Of a stretch of DNA of 64,000 nt, positions 5,022 through 63,367 are shown piece after piece. The stretch comes from a virus, in IMG/VR virus record IMGVR_UViG_3300037313_000284, positions 76,865 through 140,864 of that record. The stretch is one strand, 5' to 3'. The translations under genes were made by a program, and so were the position numbers. Each line of letters begins with the position of its first letter. The stretch's first letter is position 1. The notes beneath the pieces were generated by a model. The model did no database searches and had not been told where the DNA came from. It was given only the letters and a program-made list of their open reading frames with translations.

Positions 5022-6137
5022 TTACCACTTGCCTTCGAGAGCGAGGCTAACCTTAGAACCCAGCATGGCATTCGAAGGGAAGGTGACTTCGTAATAACCA
5101 GCCTTATTAAAGCGCACGCCACCGCCTAAGTCATCCGCCGAGTTGTTTTGGATGATTTGCAGAATGTAACGCGCCATGGTGGCTTTATTAATCACTTGCG
5201 GATTACACCGCAGCACGAGTTCGCCTTGCTCGCCAATCGACATTGAGTCAATCGCGCCTTGGAGAATCTGCGCTTGTGTTTGGAAGTCGAACTTCTCGCT
5301 ACCTTGCTTAGCCGGGCGACCAAGGAAAGTATTATAACGATTGGTCTTATCACCAAAGGTCTGAGCAACGTGCGGGGCCGTGCTATCGTTACGAACCGCA
5401 ACGCTCTTGCTAACGACGCTTGAGAAATAATCGATCAGCGCGGCGTCAGTCTGCTTAGTCCAGTGTCCGAGGTTACGACGCTTGCCGAGTTGAATGCTCG
5501 TACCAGCCGCATCGTGATAACTCGTATCCCAAACCGGGGGCAGGCGATCTTCCCACACGGACACTACAACTTCACCGCCGGTATCCAGCACCGTCTTAGC
5601 GCTAGACTTACATTCGACCGAGACGATGATGCTAAGCGTCATTTGCGCGAGACGATAGCTAATAACGTAGAGCGTTTGTTGTGCGCTCATTGCGAACTGC
5701 GTTTGGGTGGGTTCATCCTCTAGCAGTCCGTCGCGTTGCAGCGCCGTGGTGATCTTGAAGAAAGCGTTAGCCGGGTTATAAGTCGCCGAGCTAATCGGAT
5801 CACCCGGATTAACCGGAGCGCAGAGTTCTAACAGCCGGTTAGCCGTTTCAAGAATGCTGTCACGGATATTAAGCACCGACGCGCGACTGCGCGATGCGAT
5901 GTTCTCCGCCACCAAATGCGAATGCGCGACAACGGTATCGTGCAATTGATTAGTGGTTTGCAAGCAGGCGCTAAGTTTGTCGAAGATTACCTTCTCCGAC
6001 GTGACCGTAAGAGCGCGGCGATTCTTTCGCGCGCCTTGATTAATAACCGCATCAGCGCTAGCGATAGCGATTCGGGCGTCCGCTTCGGCAGCCCGAATAC
6101 TACGAGTGACCGAGTCGAAAGTCTGTTTCGAGGACAT
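5022..6137 (-). CDS. hypothetical protein, probably structural
   Basis: Long ORF, likely start MSSKQ; late motif upstream at 6201-6211. Confidence 0.75.
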   Translation of the reverse strand: MSSKQTFDSVTRSIRAAEADARIAIASADAVINQGARKNRRALTVTSEKVIFDKLSACLQTTNQLHDTVVAHSHLVAENIASRSRASVLNIRDSILETANRLLELCAPVNPGDPISSATYNPANAFFKITTALQRDGLLEDEPTQTQFAMSAQQTLYVISYRLAQMTLSIIVSVECKSSAKTVLDTGGEVVVSVWEDRLPPVWDTSYHDAAGTSIQLGKRRNLGHWTKQTDAALIDYFSSVVSKSVAVRNDSTAPHVAQTFGDKTNRYNTFLGRPAKQGSEKFDFQTQAQILQGAIDSMSIGEQGELVLRCNPQVINKATMARYILQIIQNNSADDLGGGVRFNKAGYYEVTFPSNAMLGSKVSLALEGKW

Positions 6138-6237
6138 TATTCTACAATCCCTATAGTGGCGCAAATAACGCCACCTAGTCCAACGGTGGCCGCGTATTCC
6201 CTAATAAATTACTGAAAATAGACATAGCTAATAAACG

Positions 6238-6267
6238 AAAATACCCTCACGTGTTAGGTGAGGGTAT
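6238..6267 (-). terminator. intrinsic terminator
   Basis: ATACCCTCAC/GTGAGGGTAT stem followed by U-tract on minus strand. Confidence 0.7.
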
Positions 6268-6274
6268 AGGATAT

Positions 6275-6500
6275 AAAACAAAAACGCCACCCTTCAGCGA
6301 GAAAGGGTGGCGTCTTCGGAGGGTCTAACCGGCAATTGCTTGGGAGAGAACGCGTACTGTGCGGGGGTTAGTACGCGGGGCGACTGTCCTAGCGATTGCC
6401 ACCCTCTATGGCAACAAGAGTTAGTATGGGCTAGTCCACTTAAGCAGTGAACACACTAGCAAGGCTGTAACTAGCGTTGCGTGTCATCTAACTCGCCATT
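6275..6500 (-). ncRNA. candidate structured non-coding RNA (~230 nt)
   Basis: Late motif at 6506-6517 upstream; nested stems AUGGC-GAGUUAG/CUAACUC-GCCAU, GCUAGU/ACUAGC, GAGGGU/ACCCUC, GGCAAUCGCU/AGCAAUUGCC, CGCGUACU/AGUACGCG; ends in terminator ACGCCACCCUU/AAGGGUGGCGU-UUUU; no convincing ORF. Confidence 0.65.
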
Positions 6501-6554
6501 ACCAACTAATAAATTAGTGGTTTAATGACACCTAACTCTTGGCCGTATTATTTA

Positions 6555-6662
6555 TCATACTCGACGTATAGTTCGTTTTCGTAGTCGGCGACGATCATTA
6601 GAATTTTTAGCTCGCCGTTCCGCGCGATTACGGGGACCGGGATCAATGATTGAATTCGCCAT
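6555..6662 (-). CDS. 35-aa Arg-rich protamine-like peptide (not in ORF track)
   Basis: MANSIIDPGPRNRAERRAKNSNDRRRLRKRTIRRV with GGAG RBS. Confidence 0.55.
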   Translation of the reverse strand: MANSIIDPGPRNRAERRAKNSNDRRRLRKRTIRRV

Positions 6663-6702
6663 GACTAGCACTCCGCTAGTGGAGGAAAGGGAGCAGACAT
6701 AG

Positions 6703-6762
6703 AAAAAGGGCCATCACGAAGTTACAAGACGCTAACGCAATCCTGAGTCCGTGATGGCCCTT
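6703..6762 (-). terminator. long-stem terminator downstream of histone-like gene
   Basis: AAGGGCCATCACG/CGTGATGGCCCTT stem followed by U-tract on minus strand. Confidence 0.6.
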
Positions 6763-6865
6763 CTGTAACACATAGAAATTAGTCAGGTCGTCAGTCTAAA
6801 CTTAAGCCTGAGCCTTAATGCGGTCCCCCTACGGTGAACCTACAGTCTTAGACCTGACTTATTAA

Positions 6866-7429
6866 CTACATCGACTTGCGCTTACCAGCCTTTTTGGCGG
6901 GCTTCGCAGCTTTCTTGGCAGCCTTAGGAGCGGCCTTTTTAGCAGCAGGCTTAGCAGCCTTCTTAACCGAAGCCTTCTTTGCAGCGGGCTTCGCGGCGGC
7001 CTTCTTAGCCGGACGGCCAGCCTTCTTAGCGGCGGGCTTAGCAACGGCCTTCTTAGCAGCCTTGGGGGCGGCCTTCGCAGGTTTAGTAGCCTTCTTAGCC
7101 GGAGCCTTAGCAGCGGCCTTCTTCGACTTAGCGACCGACTTCTTCACGTTGCCGCGAATCGTCTTCCACTTAGCAAACGTGGTCGTTTGCATGCCCTTAC
7201 CACCGGACGGACCGGGCTTCTTAGCCGGGCGACCTTGCTTGGTCTTACCGGTCTTATAACGGAGCAGCGCGGCCTTACGAATCTTGGCCTTGTGCTCGGC
7301 CGACATAGTGCGGCCCTTGGTCGACTTAGCAGCGGCGCGCTTACCAGCGGCAACAGCCTTCATGTCCTTCTTACGGGCTTTGCCCGTCTTCGGATCGATC
7401 TTCTCGTTCTTACCGAGTTTGCGAGCCAT
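6866..7429 (-). CDS. histone H1-like (Hc2/AlgP-like) DNA-condensing protein
   Basis: Lys/Ala/Pro repeats AAKKAAKPA; CAGGAG RBS. Confidence 0.8.
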   Translation of the reverse strand: MARKLGKNEKIDPKTGKARKKDMKAVAAGKRAAAKSTKGRTMSAEHKAKIRKAALLRYKTGKTKQGRPAKKPGPSGGKGMQTTTFAKWKTIRGNVKKSVAKSKKAAAKAPAKKATKPAKAAPKAAKKAVAKPAAKKAGRPAKKAAAKPAAKKASVKKAAKPAAKKAAPKAAKKAAKPAKKAGKRKSM

Positions 7430-7562
7430 AGCTCTTCTCCTGATAGGTGGTACTCAATTAGTATAAACCTTCGAAGCGTACTAAGTGCTACCACCTATGC
7501 GGAGGGTCAGTGATAACTTGCTTCGAATGACGCTAATAAATTAGTAATATCGCGTAAGTTAT

Positions 7563-8207
7563 TTAGGCAGCCCACGTACCTTCAAGAGTCACGTCGAAAG
7601 TTTCGGCATTAGCCGGAACATAAGCGCCATTAACTTCGGCGATAGCATAGAAGTTATACGTGTCCGACGGGCTAAACGTAATAGCGCTACCAACAGCCGG
7701 AACGCCAGTACCCACCGCGTAAGCAGTGCCGCCGAAGAAAGCCGTTTGCGCGATATCAATACGACCAACAAGACCGGTAACCGAAGCCACGCCTAAGATA
7801 CCAGCCGATTGTAATGCTGCGTTGTCCGCAACGCTTAGCACCGGCAGAGTATCAAACAGGTAGAGACGGAAAGCCGCGTTAGTAACGCTAGCCGCGCTCT
7901 TACGAATACGAGCGCGTTCAATACGCAGACCGCGACCGGGAGCCGGATTAACAAACGAAAAGAAACCGCCAGCCGCAGAGGCCAAGGCGTCGCCTGCCGC
8001 GTACGCATTGGTATCAGTCGGACGCGTAAGCACATTCGATTTAATAGCAAACGCACTATCCGTGAACTGCGTAACGGTAATCGAGCCGTTGGCGATAAAA
8101 CCCTTCACTTCGCCGGGCAGCACAGTGAACGTTGCAGCTTCCGAAGCGGCAAGGATAGCATTGCCGAGACGAATGTCGGAATTGGTCCTGTTGGTAACTA
8201 GATACAT
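7563..8207 (-). CDS. putative virion structural protein
   Basis: Ala/Gly/Thr-rich beta protein with TRPTDTNAYAAGD; late motif upstream. Confidence 0.6.
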   Translation of the reverse strand: MYLVTNRTNSDIRLGNAILAASEAATFTVLPGEVKGFIANGSITVTQFTDSAFAIKSNVLTRPTDTNAYAAGDALASAAGGFFSFVNPAPGRGLRIERARIRKSAASVTNAAFRLYLFDTLPVLSVADNAALQSAGILGVASVTGLVGRIDIAQTAFFGGTAYAVGTGVPAVGSAITFSPSDTYNFYAIAEVNGAYVPANAETFDVTLEGTWAA

Positions 8208-8334
8208 TGGAATGATCCTATCTATGGGCGTTAGTATTATTAAATTATCTATTTACGATTGCAGCGAGGGTATTCTTTTAGCGGTACCGGCGGCCGCTTA
8301 AAATCTTCACTAATAATTATTGCCGAATTATTTA

Positions 8335-8832
8335 TTATTTCTTTTTACGCTTAACTTGCTTGCCAGTTTTAACATCTACTTTGATCGCGCGGGCCATACC
8401 GACTTTCGGCCGGTAGAAATGATGCTTCCCTTCAGTTCGATCAAACACAAATCTTCCGCCTTGAATACTAGGCTTAGGCTTTTTAACACCAGCAGATTTG
8501 GCGGTACTGAACTTAGCTTTAGCGTTAGATTTCTTTTTAGCAGCGTGATAAGCTTTCAAGCCTTCGCTAATAGCTTTACGGTGTGCAGCAGTCTTGACAC
8601 TGCGTCCGTCTGGATTAGCTTTCGGTCCTCGTTTGAATCGCTTCTCGTCTACCTTTGGCGCGGGCTTTGTTCCACGTTTAAACTTAGTAACAGGTTTAGG
8701 GGTTTTGAGCGGCTTCTTTTTCTTAGCAATGCGTCCTGGGCCACCAACTCTTTCAATGTTGCCGTTAGAACGCTTAATGATTTTTTCTTTCTTCCCCGTC
8801 CTGGGGTTAACTTTCGTAGTGACCTTAGCCAT
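8335..8832 (-). CDS. Lys-rich basic DNA-binding protein
   Basis: Very basic; AAHRKAISEGLK helix echoes AEHKAKIRKA in 6866-7429. Confidence 0.75.
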   Translation of the reverse strand: MAKVTTKVNPRTGKKEKIIKRSNGNIERVGGPGRIAKKKKPLKTPKPVTKFKRGTKPAPKVDEKRFKRGPKANPDGRSVKTAAHRKAISEGLKAYHAAKKKSNAKAKFSTAKSAGVKKPKPSIQGGRFVFDRTEGKHHFYRPKVGMARAIKVDVKTGKQVKRKKK

Positions 8833-9310
8833 GATCTTCGTCCATCATTTGCGCAAGCGCGCTAGCTGATAATAAAACTTCGCCGCGCTTAGCGGTGTCT
8901 TCACCTAGACGAGAAGCTTGATTAACTTCGTCACCCCACATGTCCTTATCGAATAGGATCGTGCGACCGTACCCGATACCGATAGAGCAAGGGAAATCCG
9001 AAGCTAGTTGCTTAGCCGCCGACACCGCGTCTTTCACGTTAGGAAAGATCGCAAAGATATCGTCAGCTTCCATCTTTACTATCTCGCCGCCGTGCGTCTC
9101 TACGATAGGCTTACTGACAATTTGAAAGCGACGTATTTGCAGCATAGCCGCGAATACGCCTTCGGTTTCTGTAATGCGACTAAACCCGCTCATGTCCGCA
9201 ATGAACACGGCGACGTCTCTGCCGAATAACCGATCCATATCCTCAGATATGTAAGGTTCGGTTTCCGGTCGCGCTAATACTAAATCAAGCAGGCGCGTAA
9301 GAAACATCAC
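8825..9310 (-). CDS. stand-alone class III adenylate/guanylate cyclase
   Basis: FIADMSGFS, GGEIVKMEADD, SIGIGYG, DMWGDEVNQASRL, GEVLLS motifs. Confidence 0.85.
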   Translation of the reverse strand: MMFLTRLLDLVLARPETEPYISEDMDRLFGRDVAVFIADMSGFSRITETEGVFAAMLQIRRFQIVSKPIVETHGGEIVKMEADDIFAIFPNVKDAVSAAKQLASDFPCSIGIGYGRTILFDKDMWGDEVNQASRLGEDTAKRGEVLLSASALAQMMDEDHG

Positions 9311-10716
9311 CGCATTCCTTGAACAGGCTCAACGCCAGCACCAAACACTAACTGCTTGTTGCCTTTCACGTTGAACAAGGGATAGAGCATAGTTTCGGTT
9401 AGTGTAGGCTCCATAAGTTCGGTCATAACCGAGCAAGAGATAACTTGACCCCTAGCAGTTTCAACCGGTGTGACTGTGGTTACGCGCCACATCAATCTAT
9501 ACTTATTATCGCCTATTAACGAGTTGCGGTCAACTTTACCTACCTCAGGTGGTAAAGACACTTCAATACCATCACCTCGGATTGCAACGGAATGTCCAGC
9601 GGTTTGGTTGAAGTTAGTAACTTGTCCGCGCACCACGTTGTGAATGAGAGTCACGTCAACGTGCGTCAAATCAATCGGGTAGTCCTTAGTGTTGGTAGCC
9701 CGAATGACTAATGTTTGCAGGTTGACTTGGCTAACGCTCGCGAGTTGCGCAATAGGTGCGTACGTCGTGCCGTCTAGCGAGTACGTAATAACTACGTCAG
9801 ACGCGTGTCGGCCATCATAAGCCACGGCCCATGCAAACTGGAAATAGTTAGGGCAGTTTAGCCCGCCCCATTCCACGTAGTCGTCAGGGTCCAGATGATA
9901 AACCGGAGGCATAACGCTTTCATCCGCGCCTAGCATCGGAACCATAGTCGCGTTGACAGACGATAATACTAACCGGGTACCGCCTAATAGATCATAGCCG
10001 CCTAGCAAGCCCGTTCCGAAGCAGATTGGGCACGTCTGCGAACTGCCAATGACGTAAGCGTTGTCCGCAAGAATGCTATCGGGATTCCACGCGTCTTTTT
10101 CGTAGTCCGCTATTAACTCCTCACCGAATTCGTCGGAAGGGCTATCGGAATACTCGTGATCATATTCCCCTGCGTGGCGTCCATCGTGCATCGGACCTTC
10201 GTACGGACCAACCGAAAGAGAGTTAGTAGTGTAAGGGTCGGTGGTGCCACTAGTGGAAGTCTTCGGCGGAGGTACTTCATCGTCAAATACATCGGCTTCC
10301 GAAAAGTTATGATCAGCACGATAACTTTTGGTTTGCGCGAAGTGGTGGTCATCGGCGGACACGTCTCTAACACGAACGCGCAAGGTACTGCCTGCCGTGT
10401 CCAGATCGTCAGTGGTGTCTTCTGCTACGCCTAGCACATGCGAATTACTAGACGGCGTTTCCGCCACGTGATCGCTAGGCTCAGTTTCGCAACCGCAACG
10501 AACACCGAATTTCTTAGGGGAGAAAACGAACAACTGCGTAGCGTCAATCGAAATCGCTTCCGCAATACGACGCGATGCAGCAGACGTTAATAAATCGATA
10601 CGGTCCTGTGCGGCGTGCGCTATACCAGCATTAGGCGGCACAATTCCATGCACTCGACCGGGCGAACCGGCGTGTTGCCCTGGTACGGACCGAGTGCCGA
10701 ATCTGAAACGGGTCAT
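9307..10716 (-). CDS. putative neck / head-completion protein
   Basis: CGC ... CPICFGTGLLGGY motif seen in large-phage neck proteins. Confidence 0.5.
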   Translation of the reverse strand: MTRFRFGTRSVPGQHAGSPGRVHGIVPPNAGIAHAAQDRIDLLTSAASRRIAEAISIDATQLFVFSPKKFGVRCGCETEPSDHVAETPSSNSHVLGVAEDTTDDLDTAGSTLRVRVRDVSADDHHFAQTKSYRADHNFSEADVFDDEVPPPKTSTSGTTDPYTTNSLSVGPYEGPMHDGRHAGEYDHEYSDSPSDEFGEELIADYEKDAWNPDSILADNAYVIGSSQTCPICFGTGLLGGYDLLGGTRLVLSSVNATMVPMLGADESVMPPVYHLDPDDYVEWGGLNCPNYFQFAWAVAYDGRHASDVVITYSLDGTTYAPIAQLASVSQVNLQTLVIRATNTKDYPIDLTHVDVTLIHNVVRGQVTNFNQTAGHSVAIRGDGIEVSLPPEVGKVDRNSLIGDNKYRLMWRVTTVTPVETARGQVISCSVMTELMEPTLTETMLYPLFNVKGNKQLVFGAGVEPVQGMR

Positions 10717-10730
10717 GAGGCTGCTCGGGT

Positions 10731-10756
10731 TAATTTATTAGCTGAAGTTAAATTAG
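10731..10756. promoter_or_regulatory. pair of oppositely oriented late-promoter motifs between divergent genes
   Basis: TAATTTATTAG on plus (10731) and CTAATTTA on minus (10749-10756). Confidence 0.5.
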
Positions 10757-10788
10757 CTGCTATCCAGTTAGTGTAGTAGCTCCGCGTA

Positions 10789-11421
10789 ATGGAGATAGCA
10801 GTGTCTATCGGATATGAGTTGCCGTTATTCCCGCTTCAAGCGAAGGCTCACAACAAGGTTATTTACCGATTAGGTGAAGGTGAACCTAGCATTATATGGG
10901 CGGGTCGGCAGGCCGGTAAAACGGAAATCTGTCGGCGTGTTTCACATGCGTTTGAAGCCGCACACCAAGTCGGCATCAGTTATTCACCGGAACATTTCGA
11001 AGACTTTTTAATCGAAGACTATGACCACTTCCATCCGGCGGAAGTGACATTGGAATTCGGGGCAGAGCTAGAGCCGATTTGGGAAGCATTAACTCCGCAA
11101 ACGGTCGTGTTCATTGATAACCTATTTGAACTGCCATTCGCGGAAGAGTTGTTTTATCGAATAGCGCACGTCACGCCGCATATAGTCGCTATGACCAGCA
11201 TAGGCATTGAAGACTCCGGTTGGGACGTTAGTAAAACTATAGCCTACATGATTGGTCCGTACGCCACTTGGGAAATGAACCCGATGATGGATCAAGAGGC
11301 GCTTAGAGAATCGCGGTCGATGACACCCGGTGATCGTCGTAAGTTCAATGATGAATTATTAGCTTGCGTGAACACGAAGTACATGTGGAAGGATTGGGCA
11401 TGCAAAACTTCCAAAAGCTAA
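10789..11421 (+). CDS. terminase-type P-loop ATPase-like protein (short, no nuclease domain)
   Basis: Q motif, AGRQAGKTE Walker A, VVFIDN Walker-B-like; only 210 aa. Confidence 0.55.
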   Translation: MEIAVSIGYELPLFPLQAKAHNKVIYRLGEGEPSIIWAGRQAGKTEICRRVSHAFEAAHQVGISYSPEHFEDFLIEDYDHFHPAEVTLEFGAELEPIWEALTPQTVVFIDNLFELPFAEELFYRIAHVTPHIVAMTSIGIEDSGWDVSKTIAYMIGPYATWEMNPMMDQEALRESRSMTPGDRRKFNDELLACVNTKYMWKDWACKTSKS

Positions 11422-11708
11422 CTATCGAAGAATTAGTGGTGTTGCGTAAGGCTTGTCATGATCGGCCATTTGCCGGAGATATGTTAATCGGCGACACGTT
11501 CATGCCGCAAGAGTTTCACGGGACTGCTAGCGAATTCGATATCTTGAATAAACTAGCGGACTACTATCTGATTGATTACCACGACGAAGGTTGGTTCGGA
11601 ACTGACAAAGGTTACGAACTGTTAGATTATTATCGCCCATGTCTCGGCAATTACGGATTAGCCGGACCGACACCAGGGCAATTGAAAGCATTTATATATG
11701 GCACATGA
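11400..11708 (+). CDS. winged-helix-like hypothetical protein
   Basis: Start MQNFQKL; L.D..LI......TDKGYELL resembles a wing motif. Confidence 0.55.
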   Translation: MQNFQKLTIEELVVLRKACHDRPFAGDMLIGDTFMPQEFHGTASEFDILNKLADYYLIDYHDEGWFGTDKGYELLDYYRPCLGNYGLAGPTPGQLKAFIYGT

Positions 11709-12396
11709 AATTTGGCTGGGGGCTGATCCTGGAACTGCTCACTTCGCTGTTACTGTAATCCGATATTGTACGGAAACCCGGCGCAAGAAAGTGCTGTACG
11801 TCGGCATGATCGAAAACCCGATCAAGAACCTGACAGAAACCGCAGTTACTATGAAGCGTCGTAAAAAGAAAAACGGCGTAGCACAACCGCATATCGATAA
11901 GGATGAACCGCGTCTGTCTATTGCGGTGAAGCTGTTCACTGACGAGATTGATTGGCTACTAACTACGTATAAGGTCACGCACTTCGTAGGCGAGCGTTTC
12001 CAAGCGCGCGGGCGCATGATGGGTGATACCATCGAGGCCGTAAGCACGATGATGGGGATTATTATCGCCATGTGTCAACGGCGTCGTATTAAATTCCTGA
12101 CCACCATTGCAGGGGTCTGGAAAGGCGCCATCGCACGGCAACGCTGTGACTTGCCAAAGCTCTACGCAAATGGTATTATTATATATCAAAAAGCGTTGGC
12201 AGAAGCAGGCTTCAAAGCAACGCAAGGTGAGGCTAGTGATATCGTTCATATGATCGATAGTTCGTTAATAGCCTTGTGGCATGCAGATCGAGAACAAGTA
12301 TGGGCGAACAGTTCACTCTTACGCGTACTAACAGAGCGCTTGCTTCGTCAAGCAAGCGCAGGCGAGTCATCATCCGAGCGGCTGAACGAATCGTAG
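11698..12396 (+). CDS. ruvC: RuvC-like Holliday junction resolvase
   Basis: LGADPG, VGERFQ, WK and C-terminal HMIDS acidic motifs. Confidence 0.7.
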   Translation: MAHEIWLGADPGTAHFAVTVIRYCTETRRKKVLYVGMIENPIKNLTETAVTMKRRKKKNGVAQPHIDKDEPRLSIAVKLFTDEIDWLLTTYKVTHFVGERFQARGRMMGDTIEAVSTMMGIIIAMCQRRRIKFLTTIAGVWKGAIARQRCDLPKLYANGIIIYQKALAEAGFKATQGEASDIVHMIDSSLIALWHADREQVWANSSLLRVLTERLLRQASAGESSSERLNES

Positions 12397-12422
12397 CCGC
12401 CAGCAAGATCACTACGTGTGCA

Positions 12423-12755
12423 ATGGCCCCGGAACTAAGCTACAAGGGGTCAGCTTGTCCGGTTATTAATTGCTACATGCGCAACGAACAAAACGGAGCC
12501 TGCACCGCAGCCGAAGAGGCTAAAGCGAGTAGCAAGCTAATGCGTGAAGCAATGACGATTGTCGAAATCATCTATGCGACGCGTGAAGCCCCGGAGTGGG
12601 CCAAGTTTACTATGGTCACCACCCTCAATGAGAAGCACGAACGCTTTATTAAAGAGGCTGATCTAGACGCGGGTAAGCTGCAATACGTGCTAGATCAAAA
12701 TCCCCTTTACGCGACTACACTGCTTAGTGTGTTCAAATCGCAAGCGGAGGAATAA
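12423..12755 (+). CDS. hypothetical protein with CPxxxC motif
   Basis: ORF track; start uncertain. Confidence 0.55.
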   Translation: MAPELSYKGSACPVINCYMRNEQNGACTAAEEAKASSKLMREAMTIVEIIYATREAPEWAKFTMVTTLNEKHERFIKEADLDAGKLQYVLDQNPLYATTLLSVFKSQAEE

Positions 12756-12756
12756 C

Positions 12757-12969
12757 ATGTTGATATTGATTTTAATTATTATCGGACTTGCCTTGCTCGG
12801 GTTTAGCGAGCACTACCTGCGAAAGCACCTGGATTGGGTAAAGACGTGGGGCTTTCCGGAAGAACCTGCGCATGGCTATATTAACTATCCTATAGCTCTC
12901 GTGCTTACGTTAGTAGCCACCGTGCTAGAGGTTACTGCTTTCGCATTAATGATAGCCAGATTCGTATAG
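12757..12969 (+). CDS. small 2-TM membrane protein
   Basis: GGAGG RBS, two hydrophobic helices. Confidence 0.7.
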   Translation: MLILILIIIGLALLGFSEHYLRKHLDWVKTWGFPEEPAHGYINYPIALVLTLVATVLEVTAFALMIARFV

Positions 12970-12978
12970 AGAAAACGA

Positions 12979-13212
12979 ATGGACCCGATTATTGCAACTG
13001 CATTGTTAGGGTTAGCTGCCTGCATAAGCTTTATGTTTGCGTTAGGCAACGCGCTCTATTGGGAAGACGCAAGTCGATTGGCCTATTACAAAGAAAACAA
13101 TAGCATCAATGGCATTTGGACTGGCGTTTGGGTAATCGTGTTTCTTCTTTGTGTTTGCGGGTTAGTTGTTTACACGCCCAAGGCGTTCTTAGTGCTTAAA
13201 GCTTGTTTATAA
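12979..13212 (+). CDS. small 2-TM membrane protein
   Basis: Two hydrophobic helices. Confidence 0.65.
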   Translation: MDPIIATALLGLAACISFMFALGNALYWEDASRLAYYKENNSINGIWTGVWVIVFLLCVCGLVVYTPKAFLVLKACL

Positions 13213-13300
13213 GGTCTGCCGTCTCGATCAATTTATTGGCGAGGCTGAGAGATTATAAGCCTCGGCCAAACCAATTTGCATCGAGAAGTGGTAGACTACA

Positions 13301-13918
13301 ATGGAATCCAAGAGCTTTAACCTGTACGAACAACAAACTAAAGTCCGCGAAATCCTTAAGGATGATAGCAGCGACTCGTTCTTTATTCTAAACGTTTCGG
13401 ACCGCCCCGACCGTAACCAGAAGGCCACGCGTGAACTCGCTATGGTCTTGTTCGCGGTTACTGTTGACGGTGAATCGCGTATTATTCGCGTGCCGCCTAG
13501 CTGGGTTCCGATTGACGCGGGCATGCAAGCGCCTAAGAAGGTTATTGCGGCGAGCGGTGAATTCCAACGCGCGTTAACGGCTGGCGCTATCGTGGTGCTG
13601 GACGATGAGACTGGTCGCCGCATTATTAGCGCTGACACTGAGAGCCGCGATGAATATGCTAAGGTCATGGCTATCGCGCAAAACGTCAACGGTTCGGGCC
13701 AAGGTTATCAGTCTTATAACCAATCGGAATCGGAAGCGGCGGATGATCCGTGGGCCAACGTTTCGGCTAGCGTGAAGGTCAACGTGCAGGAAGTCGAAGC
13801 TAATAACATGTCAGAAGTTGAATTCCGTAGCTTCCTGCGTCGTGAGGCTCGCTCGATTTCCGCGCTGGATAAGAAGTATATCTCGGACAAGCTGCCTACT
13901 CTGAACATCACGGTCTAA
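13301..13918 (+). CDS. hypothetical phage protein
   Basis: 205 aa; CAATTTATTGG at 13229 upstream; terminator downstream. Confidence 0.8.
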   Translation: MESKSFNLYEQQTKVREILKDDSSDSFFILNVSDRPDRNQKATRELAMVLFAVTVDGESRIIRVPPSWVPIDAGMQAPKKVIAASGEFQRALTAGAIVVLDDETGRRIISADTESRDEYAKVMAIAQNVNGSGQGYQSYNQSESEAADDPWANVSASVKVNVQEVEANNMSEVEFRSFLRREARSISALDKKYISDKLPTLNITV

Positions 13919-13939
13919 CCTAAGACAGTCCAAGACTCA

Positions 13940-13974
13940 AAAAGCCCCGGTGCATGCACCGGGGCTTTTCTTTT
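13940..13974. terminator. bidirectional intrinsic terminator
   Basis: AAAAGCCCCGGTGCATGCACCGGGGCTTTT between convergent genes. Confidence 0.9.
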
Positions 13975-13982
13975 GCCTATTA

Positions 13983-16900
13983 CTAGACTGCGACTATTTC
14001 TACCTCGTTAATAGTGGGGTCACCACCACCAGCGCCAGTAGCCGACGAGCTAGTGCCTACTGCAATCCAAAGTTCCGTGGACAGCGCCGTGAAAGTAAAC
14101 GACGGATGATCATAAGGCTTCGGAGAGTCGGTAGACGGGATGCTAGTATTTAGATACTCACTAGTGATAGCGTTAGCCGATCTAGACGCACCTAATTGCA
14201 ACGAAGTTGTATTAGTGGTGTTTTGATCGGTAGCGCCCATCGCTAGCTTAATAGTAGCACGATACGTAACGCCGACAGTAAGCGGCTGTCTTGCGGCAAG
14301 GTTCATACGCAGAGTCGGGAAGCGTCCGGTATTAGTAACTACCGGCTGACCTTTGTCTCCGTAAATGACGCCTTGCGCCACCACAACGGTGTCTTCACCC
14401 ACGGTCTTAGTCTTAACAAGATCGGGGTTGTGCACCACGTTCATCGGCGTCCACGTGCCACCAGTGATTTGCTGGATGGATTCGTTTTGTGCCGAGGTTA
14501 ACACTTCATTGTAGTATAGTTTGAACGAGGCTTCGAAACCAGTCTTAATAATCTGCCCGGCGGGTTGTGCAGGACGCGCCGGAACTGTGATCGTATTACT
14601 AAGCACTTCGAAACCACCCACCGTGACTTTGGTCCTATGCGACGTGTTAAGGTCGGCAAATTCCAAGTCATAGCGAGCCGTTGCAGCCGCTCCACTAATA
14701 GCAACAGTGTCGCGTTGGTGTTCGAACGTAAACGTGCCTGAGATATTACCCGACCACAAACCATAGCCAGTATAAATTTGCGTGTTTTGGTTAAGGTCAA
14801 TAGCAGAACCAGCTTCGATAAAGTCCGGCCCATCCCAGCCGCCATAACGACGAACGAATTGTTTCGGAGCTTCTAGGTTGACAACCGCGCCAGAAGCCGC
14901 ATTCGTAGGTGTGACAGTTAATCTTTCTTGACCACCCAACTTTTTCGGAAAGTTGAATGACCACGTAGACCAACCAAACGCATTACGACGACGGAACTGC
15001 ACGTAATACTTACGCGTAGGCAAGTTCGAAACTGAACCGGAAGCCGGAGCGTTAGTAATAGTCGTCCACGTCATCTGATCGATGCTATAGCGAACCTGAT
15101 ATTCTAGAATCGGATAACCAGGAGTAGTGTGTCCAACGTTCGTTAAGTTCCAGGCGAAACCAGTCGCAGTAGCAGTTAATATGCCTAGCGTAGCAGCCTT
15201 ATCCGAACCAGCGTTAGTCTTGAACGGTGTAATACACTCCGGACGACCTTCCCAAACCGGGAGAGCCATTAGATTTAGTGTATTACGTAATAACGTGTAG
15301 AGCGCTTGATATTGCGCAGACAAGAACGTTGCCGTTCCAGTCTCATACATGTCCATGGTTAGGAATGTCATGTAACGGTCAACGAAAGCAACAGCCGCGC
15401 CTAGTTGACCAGCGGTCGCCCAAGTATTACCGCCAGCTAGAACCGACCAACCATCCCATCCGTTTGGACCGTTTCTAAAGCACCCGATATTAAGCATTTC
15501 GGGAACGCCTGCGCCACATGAAGTACCCAGATAGTCAGCGTCAATCTGACTATCGAAGTTACTAGCAATCGGCGGCGGTTGTGACGGAGTTTGAGTACCC
15601 CAATGAGGTATACCCACGTCTTCTGGATAGAACGTCCTGAAATAAACGTCGTGGTTACCAGGATAATTAGTAGCAATCCCGACGAATTCAACAGGAACGT
15701 AGAACGGTTGGTGCGTAGGGTTGCTCTTAATATTTAAGCATTTCGTCATCAACCCGGACACTTTTTCCCAATAGGCGTGTCCGAATAATTGTACGAATTG
15801 TTTATGCCCGTTCCACTGCCCAGCACCCGCAGCACCACGGAAGCTTCTATGGTCATAGATATCTAAGTTATTAGCGCCAAACGTCAGCGCTGTAATCCAA
15901 GCTGCTTGCGGCGCTGACTGTCCGGCCGCCAAGACTGCCGTAAGCCACTTAGACCAAGTGATACCGAAGTCCCGTGAATATCCGCTGTCACTAATCTTAT
16001 CGACCATGAATCTACGACGTTTTTCCGCGTCGTGAATCCACCAAGGTTGTAGGGCGGTAAAATATTCTGCGCCCGTTGCGGTAACAGTTGCTAAGTCTGG
16101 TGCACCAGACGGCAGAGTGAATCCATTACCCAAAGCTGCGCGGTTAGCCATACTAACAGTATAGCGAGTGGATTTACTGGTAGCGCTAGGCGAAGGTGCA
16201 ATCGCGCCGTTCGGCGGCACGGAGCTAACAATATGTAGCACGCCGTAACCATCGAATATCCGCCATTGCCCAACTTGTGGTGTAGTTAATCCACTTCGAC
16301 GAATAGATTTAACAACTGATTTCTCGTTACCAATAGCGATGGCAATCGGGGAACTCTTAGTCGCGGGGTCCACGTTTAGTGTGTGCGTGTACGTAGTCGA
16401 AGAAGCACTACCGATGCCGCCTCCGTCAGCCCACACCGCTAGCATGCCGTCGAAGCCTTGCGCTTCGCTGCCGTAAACCATCCACGGGTCAATCATCACG
16501 CCGTTGGCCCAATACGATTGGCCTGTCATTAGGGTGGCGCTACCACCCGGAGGGGTCATCGTAAAGTTACCGGAAGCCGTATTAACACCATCTGGTGTAA
16601 TCTGCGTGATATTAAACACGCGATCCGAGATCGCGAACGGCTGACCGTCGGCGTAGCGACCCACAAGCACCGGAACGCTAAAGTAGAAAGTCACATCACC
16701 ATGAGTGATCGACGATTGTAGCGAAGTGGGCGTCACCGAAGCAATAACCGTGACAGCAATTGCAAAATTGGGCGACGTTAGACCGGTAGCGACGCTAGTG
16801 GCACGCACGATAACATCGTAAACGTTATTACCGCCAACGTCGACGGGGTTTTCGAAATCCTTAGGCGAACCTTGCCACACAAGGTTACTACCGACGATTT

Positions 16901-17099
16901 GGAAGTTGGCCGCGTCGGCTCCGCCAACGATTGCCCAAGTAACGGACTCGTTAGCGGTTAGCGCGTGAGTTAGCGTAGTTTCGTCAACTACGACGACCGT
17001 ATTCGCCATCGTAACCACAGGGGCGGGTAACGGGTTATACGTTAATAACGCCGCTACGCTGGTGCTCATGAAGCACCCGACTTTAGATAGTTGAGGCAT
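13983..17099 (-). CDS. tail fibre / receptor-binding protein (cadherin-like, FN3 and CBM-like modules)
   Basis: GGADAANF...DFENPVDVGGNNVYDVIVRAT cadherin-like repeat; YYVQFRRRNAFGWSTWS FN3 end. Confidence 0.7.
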   Translation of the reverse strand: MPQLSKVGCFMSTSVAALLTYNPLPAPVVTMANTVVVVDETTLTHALTANESVTWAIVGGADAANFQIVGSNLVWQGSPKDFENPVDVGGNNVYDVIVRATSVATGLTSPNFAIAVTVIASVTPTSLQSSITHGDVTFYFSVPVLVGRYADGQPFAISDRVFNITQITPDGVNTASGNFTMTPPGGSATLMTGQSYWANGVMIDPWMVYGSEAQGFDGMLAVWADGGGIGSASSTTYTHTLNVDPATKSSPIAIAIGNEKSVVKSIRRSGLTTPQVGQWRIFDGYGVLHIVSSVPPNGAIAPSPSATSKSTRYTVSMANRAALGNGFTLPSGAPDLATVTATGAEYFTALQPWWIHDAEKRRRFMVDKISDSGYSRDFGITWSKWLTAVLAAGQSAPQAAWITALTFGANNLDIYDHRSFRGAAGAGQWNGHKQFVQLFGHAYWEKVSGLMTKCLNIKSNPTHQPFYVPVEFVGIATNYPGNHDVYFRTFYPEDVGIPHWGTQTPSQPPPIASNFDSQIDADYLGTSCGAGVPEMLNIGCFRNGPNGWDGWSVLAGGNTWATAGQLGAAVAFVDRYMTFLTMDMYETGTATFLSAQYQALYTLLRNTLNLMALPVWEGRPECITPFKTNAGSDKAATLGILTATATGFAWNLTNVGHTTPGYPILEYQVRYSIDQMTWTTITNAPASGSVSNLPTRKYYVQFRRRNAFGWSTWSFNFPKKLGGQERLTVTPTNAASGAVVNLEAPKQFVRRYGGWDGPDFIEAGSAIDLNQNTQIYTGYGLWSGNISGTFTFEHQRDTVAISGAAATARYDLEFADLNTSHRTKVTVGGFEVLSNTITVPARPAQPAGQIIKTGFEASFKLYYNEVLTSAQNESIQQITGGTWTPMNVVHNPDLVKTKTVGEDTVVVAQGVIYGDKGQPVVTNTGRFPTLRMNLAARQPLTVGVTYRATIKLAMGATDQNTTNTTSLQLGASRSANAITSEYLNTSIPSTDSPKPYDHPSFTFTALSTELWIAVGTSSSATGAGGGDPTINEVEIVAV

Positions 17100-17490
17100 T
17101 TAGACTTATCCCATCGTCTGGAGGGATGACACCAACGAGTAACCATTGTTGTCGAGGTATGTCAGGCAACGTTAGTGTCTGATTGGCGAATTCGTGCAGG
17201 CTATCACCACAATAGATGATCATGCCGTTAGTAATAAAGTAGTGGCACCTACCATGGATGCCGTCTTCATCGTTGGGTCCTCCCCAACTAATATTCATAG
17301 ACGGTTGAAAGGTAGGCGAGTCATGGTTCAGGTTATAAGACCACCTAGCTCCGGTATGCGTCGGCTGGTCTACGTAAAAGGGATGCAGGTGTTTGCATGC
17401 GGGGCACCAATGCGCGTAAACCGCGTTATCGCCCCATTCGTAATGGCGCATTATTTTAGCGCTAAGCCACTGCGCTTTGACTTGGCCCAT
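17083..17490 (-). CDS. DUF6527-like Cys/His protein
   Basis: HWCPACKHLH, WSYNLNHDSPTFQPS, RCHYFITNG, YCGDSLH. Confidence 0.7.
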   Translation of the reverse strand: MGQVKAQWLSAKIMRHYEWGDNAVYAHWCPACKHLHPFYVDQPTHTGARWSYNLNHDSPTFQPSMNISWGGPNDEDGIHGRCHYFITNGMIIYCGDSLHEFANQTLTLPDIPRQQWLLVGVIPPDDGISLNASTI

Positions 17491-17547
17491 AGAACGCGGC
17501 TCCTAATGTTCACTTTAATAAATTAGCGCTATACCGATTAAACAAAG

Positions 17548-58282: not shown

Positions 58283-58357
58283 GGGCCGGTAGCTCAGTGG
58301 TAGAGCATTCGACTTTTAATCGAATGGTCGTGGGTTCGAGTCCCACCCGGCCTACCA
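58283..58357 (+). tRNA. tRNA-Lys(UUU)
   Basis: GGGCCGG acceptor, TTCGA-CTTTTAA-TCGAA anticodon arm, GTTCGAG, encoded CCA. Confidence 0.95.
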
Positions 58358-60354: not shown

Positions 60355-60439
60355 GCCCCGGTGGTGGAATTGGTAGACGCGACGGACTTAAAATCCGTTG
60401 CCTTCGGGCGTGCCGGTTCGAGTCCGGCTCGGGGCACCA
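60355..60439 (+). tRNA. tRNA-Leu(UAA)
   Basis: ACGGA-CTTAAAA-TCCGT anticodon arm, long variable arm, encoded CCA. Confidence 0.95.
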
Positions 60440-63283: not shown

Positions 63284-63367
63284 GCGGGCGTGGCGAAATG
63301 GCAACCGCAGTAGATTTAGGTTCTACCGCCGAAAGGCTTGGAGGTTCGAGTCCTCTCGCCCGCACCA
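63284..63367 (+). tRNA. tRNA-Leu(UAG)
   Basis: GTAGA-TTTAGGT-TCTAC anticodon arm, variable arm, encoded CCA. Confidence 0.95.

Follow-up and report, generated by a model that had tools for sequence, protein, structure and literature searches.

The final 64 kb of the 140.8-kb IMG/VR virus record IMGVR_UViG_3300037313_000284 (positions 76,865 to 140,864; completeness about 68%) carry, on the minus strand, a 417-nucleotide (nt) gap inside a co-oriented module of head and connector genes. We describe here the element in this gap, a two-domain RNA located between a small arginine-rich open reading frame (the micro-ORF) and a gene for a protein of 371 amino acids (aa). It is very likely that the locus encodes a genuine, conserved and structured non-coding RNA (ncRNA). 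All coordinates refer to the window, that is, the whole 64,000-nt stretch of DNA analysed. Within the module, the product of 3546-4661 matches a PHROG head-tail connector family, and most of the genes have no family. A first-pass annotation had proposed an ncRNA with its own late promoter, a double terminator and an alternative fold. The structure, the lack of coding capacity and the motif copy belonging to the RNA were all borne out, and the promoter itself we treat as putative. The features of the locus, in the direction of transcription, are the following.

7429-6866, minus strand: 187-aa gene, first in the direction of transcription
6760-6703, minus strand: terminator-like hairpin between the 187-aa gene and the micro-ORF
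6662-6555, minus strand: micro-ORF, 35 aa, arginine-rich, ending in UGA UAA
6544-6525, minus strand: upstream alternative 5' strand (U), 12 nt past the micro-ORF stop codon
6517-6506, minus strand: promoter-like motif CTAATTTATTAG, recognised by recurrence and conservation
6505-6281, minus strand: two-domain RNA, some 225 nt, running from just past the motif through terminator 1
6505-6407, minus strand: domain 1, closing stem P1 and a three-way junction with P2 and P3
6504-6488 with 6424-6409, minus strand: closing stem P1
6496-6492, minus strand: GCGAG site in the P1 5' strand, complementary to the terminator loop
6476-6454, minus strand: hairpin P2, CGCUAG/CUAGUG
6466-6461, minus strand: AGCCUU in the P2 loop, identical in all seven sequences
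6452-6434, minus strand: hairpin P3, 7 base pairs (bp)
6406-6319, minus strand: domain 2, a long irregular hairpin made up of P4, P5, an internal loop rich in pyrimidines, and P6, capped by a C-rich loop
6316-6281, U tract to 6272, minus strand: terminator 1, a 14-bp stem with loop UCUCGCUG (6302-6295)
6267-6233, minus strand: terminator 2 (back-up)
6212-6201, minus strand: second copy of the promoter-like motif, preceding the 371-aa gene
6137-5022, minus strand: 371-aa gene, downstream, the anchor for finding relatives

Relatives, fold and covariation of the RNA

To find relatives of the locus we used the 371-aa protein. Seven relatives were present among 5.8 billion proteins (43-78% identity) and four more came from searching 1.8 billion representatives with a profile, giving about 11 in the protein collections searched, while IMG/VR and JGI metagenome contigs, searched with the single sequence and with the profile, yielded none. 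These proteins led to six further distinct copies of the locus in metagenome contigs: L002 (=L003), L004, L005 (=L006), L010 (=L011), L008 and L009. All copies share one layout, in which the motif is followed by about 200 nt, a terminator, a second motif, a leader and the orthologue of the 371-aa gene, and three invariant islands (AGCCUU, CC..AGAGGG and CUCCGRA) recur across them. The record itself holds one copy according to BLAST, and covariance models found no second one in the window. A blastn search of annotated phage genomes (INPHARED) with 6100-6700 gave no match, and pattern scans built on the invariant islands gave 0 matches in IMG/VR viral contigs and 0 in JGI metagenome contigs. Two pattern matches in 185,579 prokaryote genomes were rejected as chance, both being G+C-rich and without hairpins or terminator. 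So far, the RNA family is small and confined to one phage clade.

One distant relative of the 371-aa gene, in L012, has the same slot, with a motif, about 240 nt (900-1140), a terminator, a second motif and the gene. This stretch is strongly structured (z -7.5), and the covariance models found no homologue in it (the domain 1 model reached E 0.7, the domain 2 model gave nothing). As read from the gene list and the sequence, the roughly 50 nt between the preceding gene and the motif of L012 appear to leave no room for a small ORF, which fits a link between the RNA and the micro-ORF.

The segment 6545-6238 folds at -125.2 kcal/mol, compared with -83.4 +/- 5.0 for dinucleotide shuffles (z -8.35), and none of 100 shuffles was as stable. 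The core alone, without the terminators and the upstream segment, gave z -3.18. Since the opposite strand folds about equally well, energy alone cannot assign the strand. The curated helices, however, hold 23 G-U pairs, each of which would be an A.C mismatch on the other strand, and these pairs, together with the U tracts, identify the minus strand as the RNA sense. No conserved ORF was detected within the RNA: the longest ATG frames span 11-57 codons on varying strands and in varying frames, and L010 has no stop-free stretch of more than 28 codons. In the copy of the RNA in the window, the longest AUG frame indeed has 15 codons, as annotated.

Folded singly, all seven sequences adopt the same architecture. 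Plain MAFFT alignment of the full-length RNAs followed by RNAalifold recovered P2, P4 and the terminator alone. Because MAFFT misaligned the variable helices, the alignment was curated by hand by block lengths (38 blocks per sequence), and nine helical segments were tested: P1a, P1b, P2, P3, P4, P5a, P5b, P6 and the terminator stem. Across 60 paired columns and seven sequences, 406 of 417 cells were canonical (97.4%), and 50 columns contained compensatory double changes, so the covariation that the first-pass annotation had named as a check was found in the six relatives. As a control, we paired each 5' strand with the 3' strand of another sequence, which left 61% of the cells paired, with a maximum of 69.5% in 1000 derangements. 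The difference was large for the variable helices P5b (45% in the control, 93% observed) and P6 (44% and 100%).

An independent check, in which a covariance model was built for each domain, the seven sequences were realigned with Infernal and the pairs were counted, gave a similar picture. For domain 1 (alignment A7), 84.7% of the positions were paired compared with 72.6% after shuffling, a value that none of 500 shuffles reached, and 16 pairs showed double changes against 7.9 in shuffles; slid controls gave 32-48%. For domain 2 and the terminator (alignment A8), pairing was 84.2% compared with 65.6% (again 0 of 500 as high), with 24 double-changed pairs against 15.9 and slid controls of 36-52%.

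In domain 1, the canonical cells amount to 95% in P1a, 91% in P1b, 100% in P2 and 98% in P3, with compensatory changes in most columns. The outer stem proposed from the window, GAGUUAG/CUAACUC with AUGGC/GCCAU, is present there, but the register kept in the relatives is UGGUAA/UUGCCA. The proposed inner pairing GCUAGU/ACUAGC can form in the window and is not kept in the relatives; what is conserved in its place is the local hairpin P2 (100% paired, n=7), whose stem shows compensatory changes in five of six columns. The pairing UCACU/AGUGG, also proposed, lies within the 7-bp hairpin P3. The domain 2 pairings of the earlier description (GAGGGU/ACCCUC, GGCAAUCGCU/AGCAAUUGCC and CGCGUACU/AGUACGCG) are all present, and their helices have 98% (P4), 100% (P5a), 93% (P5b) and 100% (P6) canonical cells. 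P4, which is GAGGGU/ACCCUC, is nearly invariant, and P6 shows compensatory changes in every column.

The two hairpin loops of domain 1 display invariant sequences, AGCCUU in the 8-11-nt loop of P2, above a stem that covaries, and UGC..UAA in P3. Such short invariant loops on covarying stems, together with a promoter-like motif and a terminator of its own, would suit a trans-acting, base-pairing small RNA (sRNA), derived from a 3' untranslated region (3'-UTR) and transcribed from an internal promoter, whose loops (AGCCUU, the C-rich loop and UCUCGCU in the terminator) regulate phage or host mRNAs. We consider this quite unlikely. The initiation regions of the neighbouring genes in six loci contained no target matched by the same loop across orthologues, the sole partial match being that of the il5 strand to the leader of the 371-aa gene in three close relatives, and the invariant stretches are only 5-6 nt long.

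Alternative 5' strands, the micro-ORF and flanking signals

The closing stem P1 can be completed by either of two 5' strands. The segment 6544-6525 is complementary to CUAACUCUUG and AUGACAC, as the first-pass annotation had noted, and its further proposal that a read-through transcript folds differently gained support from the relatives, in which the pairing of the upstream strand is conserved. In all seven sequences, the P1 3' strand can pair with an upstream element whose first letters are GG (RNAduplex, -15 to -19 kcal/mol), and the match of this element is more perfect than that of the proximal strand just past the motif. Pairs of elements from the same sequence average -15.3 kcal/mol, compared with -9.8 for pairs taken across sequences. 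For the window, L002, L004, L008 and L009, the own pair outranks every other pair in its column, and the pairings of L005 and L010 are individually no better than shuffles.

Partition-function folds of the long form give the P1 3' strand 7.9-12.9 expected pairs with the upstream element, and approximately none with the proximal strand in six of the seven sequences (L002 is split). The long form retains P2, P3, domain 2 and the terminator, and gains a hairpin that encloses the motif. Since the proximal strand (P1a and P1b) and the upstream element both covary with the P1 3' strand, both pairings appear to be selected. The two alternative 5' strands of the closing stem imply that promoter-initiated and read-through transcripts fold differently at their 5' ends.

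The upstream element starts 6-12 nt past the stop codon of the micro-ORF in six loci; in L008 this ORF lies off the contig. At 33-51 aa, the micro-ORF is conserved in all six loci with upstream DNA, adjoining the RNA in each. N-R-x-x-R-R-A recurs in the peptides, as does a basic R-K-R tail, and their frames usually end in tandem stops; in the window, the 35-aa peptide is arginine-rich in its C-terminal half. Searches of Pfam, PHROGs and PDB sequences (phmmer, E up to 10) found no relatives of the peptide. Between the hairpin at 6760-6703 and the micro-ORF there is no copy of the TAATTT motif, which suggests that the micro-ORF is probably expressed from read-through transcripts ending in the RNA, and this expression may depend on read-through of that hairpin. 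The hairpin resembles a terminator, with a long stem, a large and partly conserved loop and a U tract, and occurs in the window, L002, L004, L005 and L010. The link between the RNA and the micro-ORF was absent from the first-pass annotation and is, we think, the best functional lead for the RNA.

The same arrangement gives rise to the main rival of a separate protein-binding RNA, namely a cis-acting element in the 3'-UTR of the micro-ORF transcript that serves retroregulation or processing. In this case, the amount of micro-protein would be set by an RNase III-type site or a stability element, and the short RNA would arise as a by-product or by processing, with ribosomes that terminate 6-12 nt upstream able to modulate the duplex. 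The position of the upstream element behind tandem stops in six loci fits this explanation, as do its covariation with the P1 3' strand in all seven sequences, its dominance over the proximal strand in the long-form folds and the missing motif ahead of the micro-ORF. Nevertheless, the proximal 5' strand covaries as well, which places the short form, too, under selection; the covarying helices, about 180 nt with invariant loops, go far beyond what a processing site or a 3' stabiliser needs; and the internal promoter-like motif is kept in all seven sequences. We regard such a cis-acting element as unlikely, and the two explanations are compatible with each other.

The motif CTAATTTATTAG lies at 6517-6506, exactly where it had been annotated. 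Written as TAATTTATTAG, the motif occurs in the window in four exact copies and in six copies with one mismatch, compared with 1.0 expected. Across the 140.8-kb record there are eight copies of the looser pattern TAATTTNNTA, seven of them intergenic, although intergenic DNA makes up 11%. Five copies sit 25-104 nt before ORFs of the structural module, and the sixth copy in this block is the one before the RNA, 342 nt from the next ORF. All six lie within 11 kb (6201-17525), where they are intergenic and face the next ORF, with two copies in the remaining 130 kb. TAATTTNNTA probably marks a promoter or operator class of the structural module, and the motif may act as a promoter. The copy before the RNA is kept at the same position in all seven homologues, and the copy before the orthologue of the 371-aa gene is kept in every relative, including L007 and L012. 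With copies heading the neighbouring structural units and one at the RNA, the RNA owns the same signal as these units.

A terminator scan for a G+C-rich hairpin followed by a U tract hit 6318-6279 and 6267-6241, in line with the two tandem intrinsic terminators annotated before. Terminator 1 keeps its hairpin and U tract in all seven sequences; its stem is 100% paired, with compensatory changes in nine of ten core columns. Terminator 2 was seen in the window and L002, has a counterpart farther downstream in L005, and is absent from L004 and L008. We found no covarying anti-terminator strand for terminator 1: own pairs average -11.4 kcal/mol and cross-sequence pairs -10.7, and a complement is limited to the window and L010, where it involves the invariant AGAGGG. 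In the window, AGAGGGUGGC, at the foot of domain 2 (6397-6407), also complements the 5' half of the terminator 1 stem (6303-6312); at -18.2 kcal/mol this pairing matches the terminator stem itself in strength, and it is weaker in L010 and not family-wide.

An arginine-rich peptide gene beside a structured RNA, with one or two terminators and then a run of late genes behind it, is also the arrangement expected of processive antitermination of the lambda N-nut or HK022 put type, in which the peptide, bound to a hairpin of the nascent RNA, or the RNA by itself, acting on RNA polymerase, would let transcription pass terminators 1 and 2 into the 371-aa gene and beyond. The peptide motif N-R-x-x-R-R-A also appears similar to the arginine-rich motifs of lambdoid N proteins. 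We judge this very unlikely. The 371-aa gene has its own conserved motif past the terminators, terminator 1 lacks a covarying anti-terminator strand, and in size the RNA exceeds nut or put several times over. Inspection by eye brought out neither a boxA nor a boxB, the P3 loop UGC..UAA being only vaguely boxA-like, and the conserved terminator loop with its complement suggests that the hairpin stays in the mature RNA as a stable element. A riboswitch or attenuator for the 371-aa gene was considered as well and is probably not what the RNA is, given the lack of a covarying anti-terminator and the copy of the motif between terminator and gene.

The terminator loop is UCUCGCU in four to five of the seven sequences, although the stem covaries freely. 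In five of the seven it has a 5-6-nt Watson-Crick complement at one shared place, the invariant GCGAG (6496-6492), which stands where the P1 internal loop meets P1b and is the sole complementary site, or one of few, in these five. Both sides have changed in a compensatory way in L010, to GCGACGC with GUGUCGC (-13.3 kcal/mol, far better than any cross pair), and in L008, to AGCGG with CCGUU. In L009 the complement is shifted by 4 nt. In these seven sequences the complementarity is suggestive of a pseudoknot or an intermolecular contact, and it suggests that the terminator hairpin may be part of the stable mature RNA. The contact competes with the initial pairs of P1b, and the long isoform would leave it room to form.

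The first-pass annotation had listed a packaging or scaffold RNA among its suggestions. A contact between molecules would recall the phi29 packaging RNA (pRNA), and we examined whether the RNA may form rings or scaffolds through loop-GCGAG contacts, either on the prohead or in DNA condensation. The topology of domain 1, with a closing helix and a three-way junction bearing two hairpin arms, agrees with this, as do the covarying loop-to-strand complementarity and the location of the gene among genes for head, connector and basic proteins, with a late motif. On the other hand, the pRNA model (RF00044) was not among the Rfam matches at E up to 10, and the loop alignment showed no L2/L3 loop complementarity of at least 5 nt, the arm-loop pairing typical of pRNA. 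The pRNA contact joins two hairpin loops. The contact in the present RNA may be made within or between molecules, and no link to a portal or an ATPase was found. We hold a pRNA-like function to be highly improbable.

Downstream, the AlphaFold 2 (AF2) model of the 371-aa protein is of moderate confidence (predicted local distance difference test, pLDDT, 67.7). In BFVD the model resembles solely uncharacterised jumbo-phage proteins (PaBG, Motura, Yoloswag and phiRSL1), Foldseek gave no match in the PDB, and VIA-align found nothing beyond a generic N-terminal three-helix bundle. These structure searches (Foldseek, VIA-align and BFVD) did not demonstrate that it is a capsid protein. The leader of its gene (6156-6191, minus strand) contains three segments, GGCCACC, GGUGGCG and GCGCCAC, the middle one of which can pair with either neighbour. 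They sit just 5' of a Shine-Dalgarno-like UAGGGA, are kept in all relatives, including L007 and L010, and may constitute a translational switch or pseudoknot acting on that gene.

A proposed role in late infection

Overall, we propose that the locus encodes a conserved ncRNA of a new family with a late protein-binding role, and assign this statement as a whole a probability of roughly 45%. For the role itself, that of a protein-binding RNA working with the co-encoded arginine-rich micro-protein, we hold a tentative view, somewhat short of even odds. According to this proposal, the RNA would be made late, alongside the structural genes that carry the same motif, and would end at its own terminator. 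A short form of about 225 nt would start from the internal motif, and a long form of about 264 nt or more would arise by read-through from the micro-ORF. The RNA would not serve as a leader for the 371-aa gene, which has its own motif. The conserved loops on covarying stems would be putative recognition sites for the micro-protein, so that the RNA would either hold this very basic peptide or serve as its RNA target, and in the read-through form the GCGAG site would be freed to dock onto the terminator loop.

Several points weigh against this proposal. From the sequence we infer the start site of the RNA, the promoter activity of the motif and the efficiency of termination, and we likewise infer the binding of the peptide to the RNA. 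Adjacency of RNA and micro-ORF could be plain synteny among fairly close relatives. The likeness of the peptide to the arginine-rich motifs of lambdoid N proteins is a putative one, and the search of PDB sequences gave no match. Furthermore, domain 2 is remodelled in L009 and the pyrimidine-rich internal loops are not universal, and seven sequences are known in total, among which those of the window and L002 are nearly identical.

A bolder form of the proposal is that RNA and micro-protein together constitute a ribonucleoprotein dedicated to the late phase, of a type so far undescribed in tailed phages. In it, the RNA would act as a scaffold or chaperone for basic DNA-condensing proteins, or would self-assemble via the loop-GCGAG contact in head assembly, with the two isoforms as a built-in switch. 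We consider this a long shot. If the RNA does belong to a true ribonucleoprotein in late infection or head assembly, an RNA component would join a process that, outside the phi29 group, is regarded as carried out by proteins only; should it be regulatory instead, the locus would represent a new layout that couples a micro-ORF to an RNA switch. Besides tRNAs, very few structured RNAs encoded by phages have an established role, and for most candidates the covariation is thin. The evidence here is unusually clean for seven sequences, with nearly every helix covarying, and three features stand out: a closing stem with interchangeable 5' strands, one for each of the two predicted transcript forms, covariation between the terminator loop and the strand it would contact, and a fixed arginine-rich neighbour.

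Comparison with known RNAs

We compared the RNA with described families. Searching the whole window against Rfam 15 at gathering thresholds returned three tRNAs elsewhere only; tRNA genes lie on the plus strand at 58283-58357 (Lys-UUU), 60355-60439 (Leu-UAA) and 63284-63367 (Leu-UAG). At E up to 10, 6000-6800 and the seven homologous loci gave scattered sub-threshold matches on terminator hairpins, with no family recurring. Two suggestions of the first-pass annotation, a 6S-like decoy of RNA polymerase and a ToxI-type RNA antitoxin mimic, agree with the RNA in size and phage context only. There was no Rfam match to 6S RNA (RF00013) or to an antitoxin RNA of any kind, the fold is a branched one of two domains and not a long rod with a central bubble, and Tandem Repeats Finder (minimum score 30) found no tandem repeats in 6100-6900. 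We give these two suggestions next to no credence. Our search of the full-text literature, outside which fell a catalogue of about 10,000 viral RNA candidates (PMC10690425), found no description of the RNA or of a comparable pair of micro-protein and RNA.

The RNA is closest in kind to 3'-UTR-derived sRNAs, of which those of bacteria and phages with an internal promoter are called type I, for example MicL and DapZ. It shares with them the position right after an ORF, between its stop codon and a shared terminator, an internal promoter-like element, taken here as a putative promoter, and the predicted existence of long and short forms. However, it is much larger than these sRNAs and folded more intricately, its two domains comprising seven helices that covary. 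The search for a seed-target pair gave none, and the two predicted forms of the RNA are set apart by a conserved exchange of strands in the closing stem. Retroregulation at lambda sib and the RNase III sites of T7 offer a parallel in the long, near-perfect duplex present solely in the longer form of the transcript, yet the difference between the forms lies here at the 5' end rather than the 3' end, and cleavage is putative. The lambda N/nut and HK022 put systems similarly have a gene for a small arginine-rich protein beside a structured RNA before terminators and late genes. The present RNA is about three times larger and lies ahead of a gene equipped with its own promoter-like motif. By eye, neither boxA nor boxB could be made out in it, and the conservation of its terminator loop would befit a stable RNA.

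Among elaborately folded, phage-associated RNAs whose function is not established, ROOL and GOLLD come to mind, and these are described in one report as forming RNA-only complexes (10.1101/2024.12.08.627333). The present RNA is several times smaller and has no sequence or model similarity to them, and multimerisation is in its case a mere possibility. With phi29 pRNA it has in common the size class of phage RNAs of 120-230 nt, a closing helix with a three-way junction and two hairpin arms (P1-P3), short covarying complementarity and a place among morphogenesis genes. The partners of the complementarity differ, being a terminator loop and a stem strand instead of two hairpin loops, and pRNA is an early transcript at the genome end of small Bacillus podoviruses; moreover, pRNA binds the prohead connector and is needed for DNA packaging, a role that would be conjectural for the present RNA. 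In sum, the RNA is a new family without a described relative, resembling 3'-UTR-derived sRNAs in kind and pRNA in the topology of its first domain.

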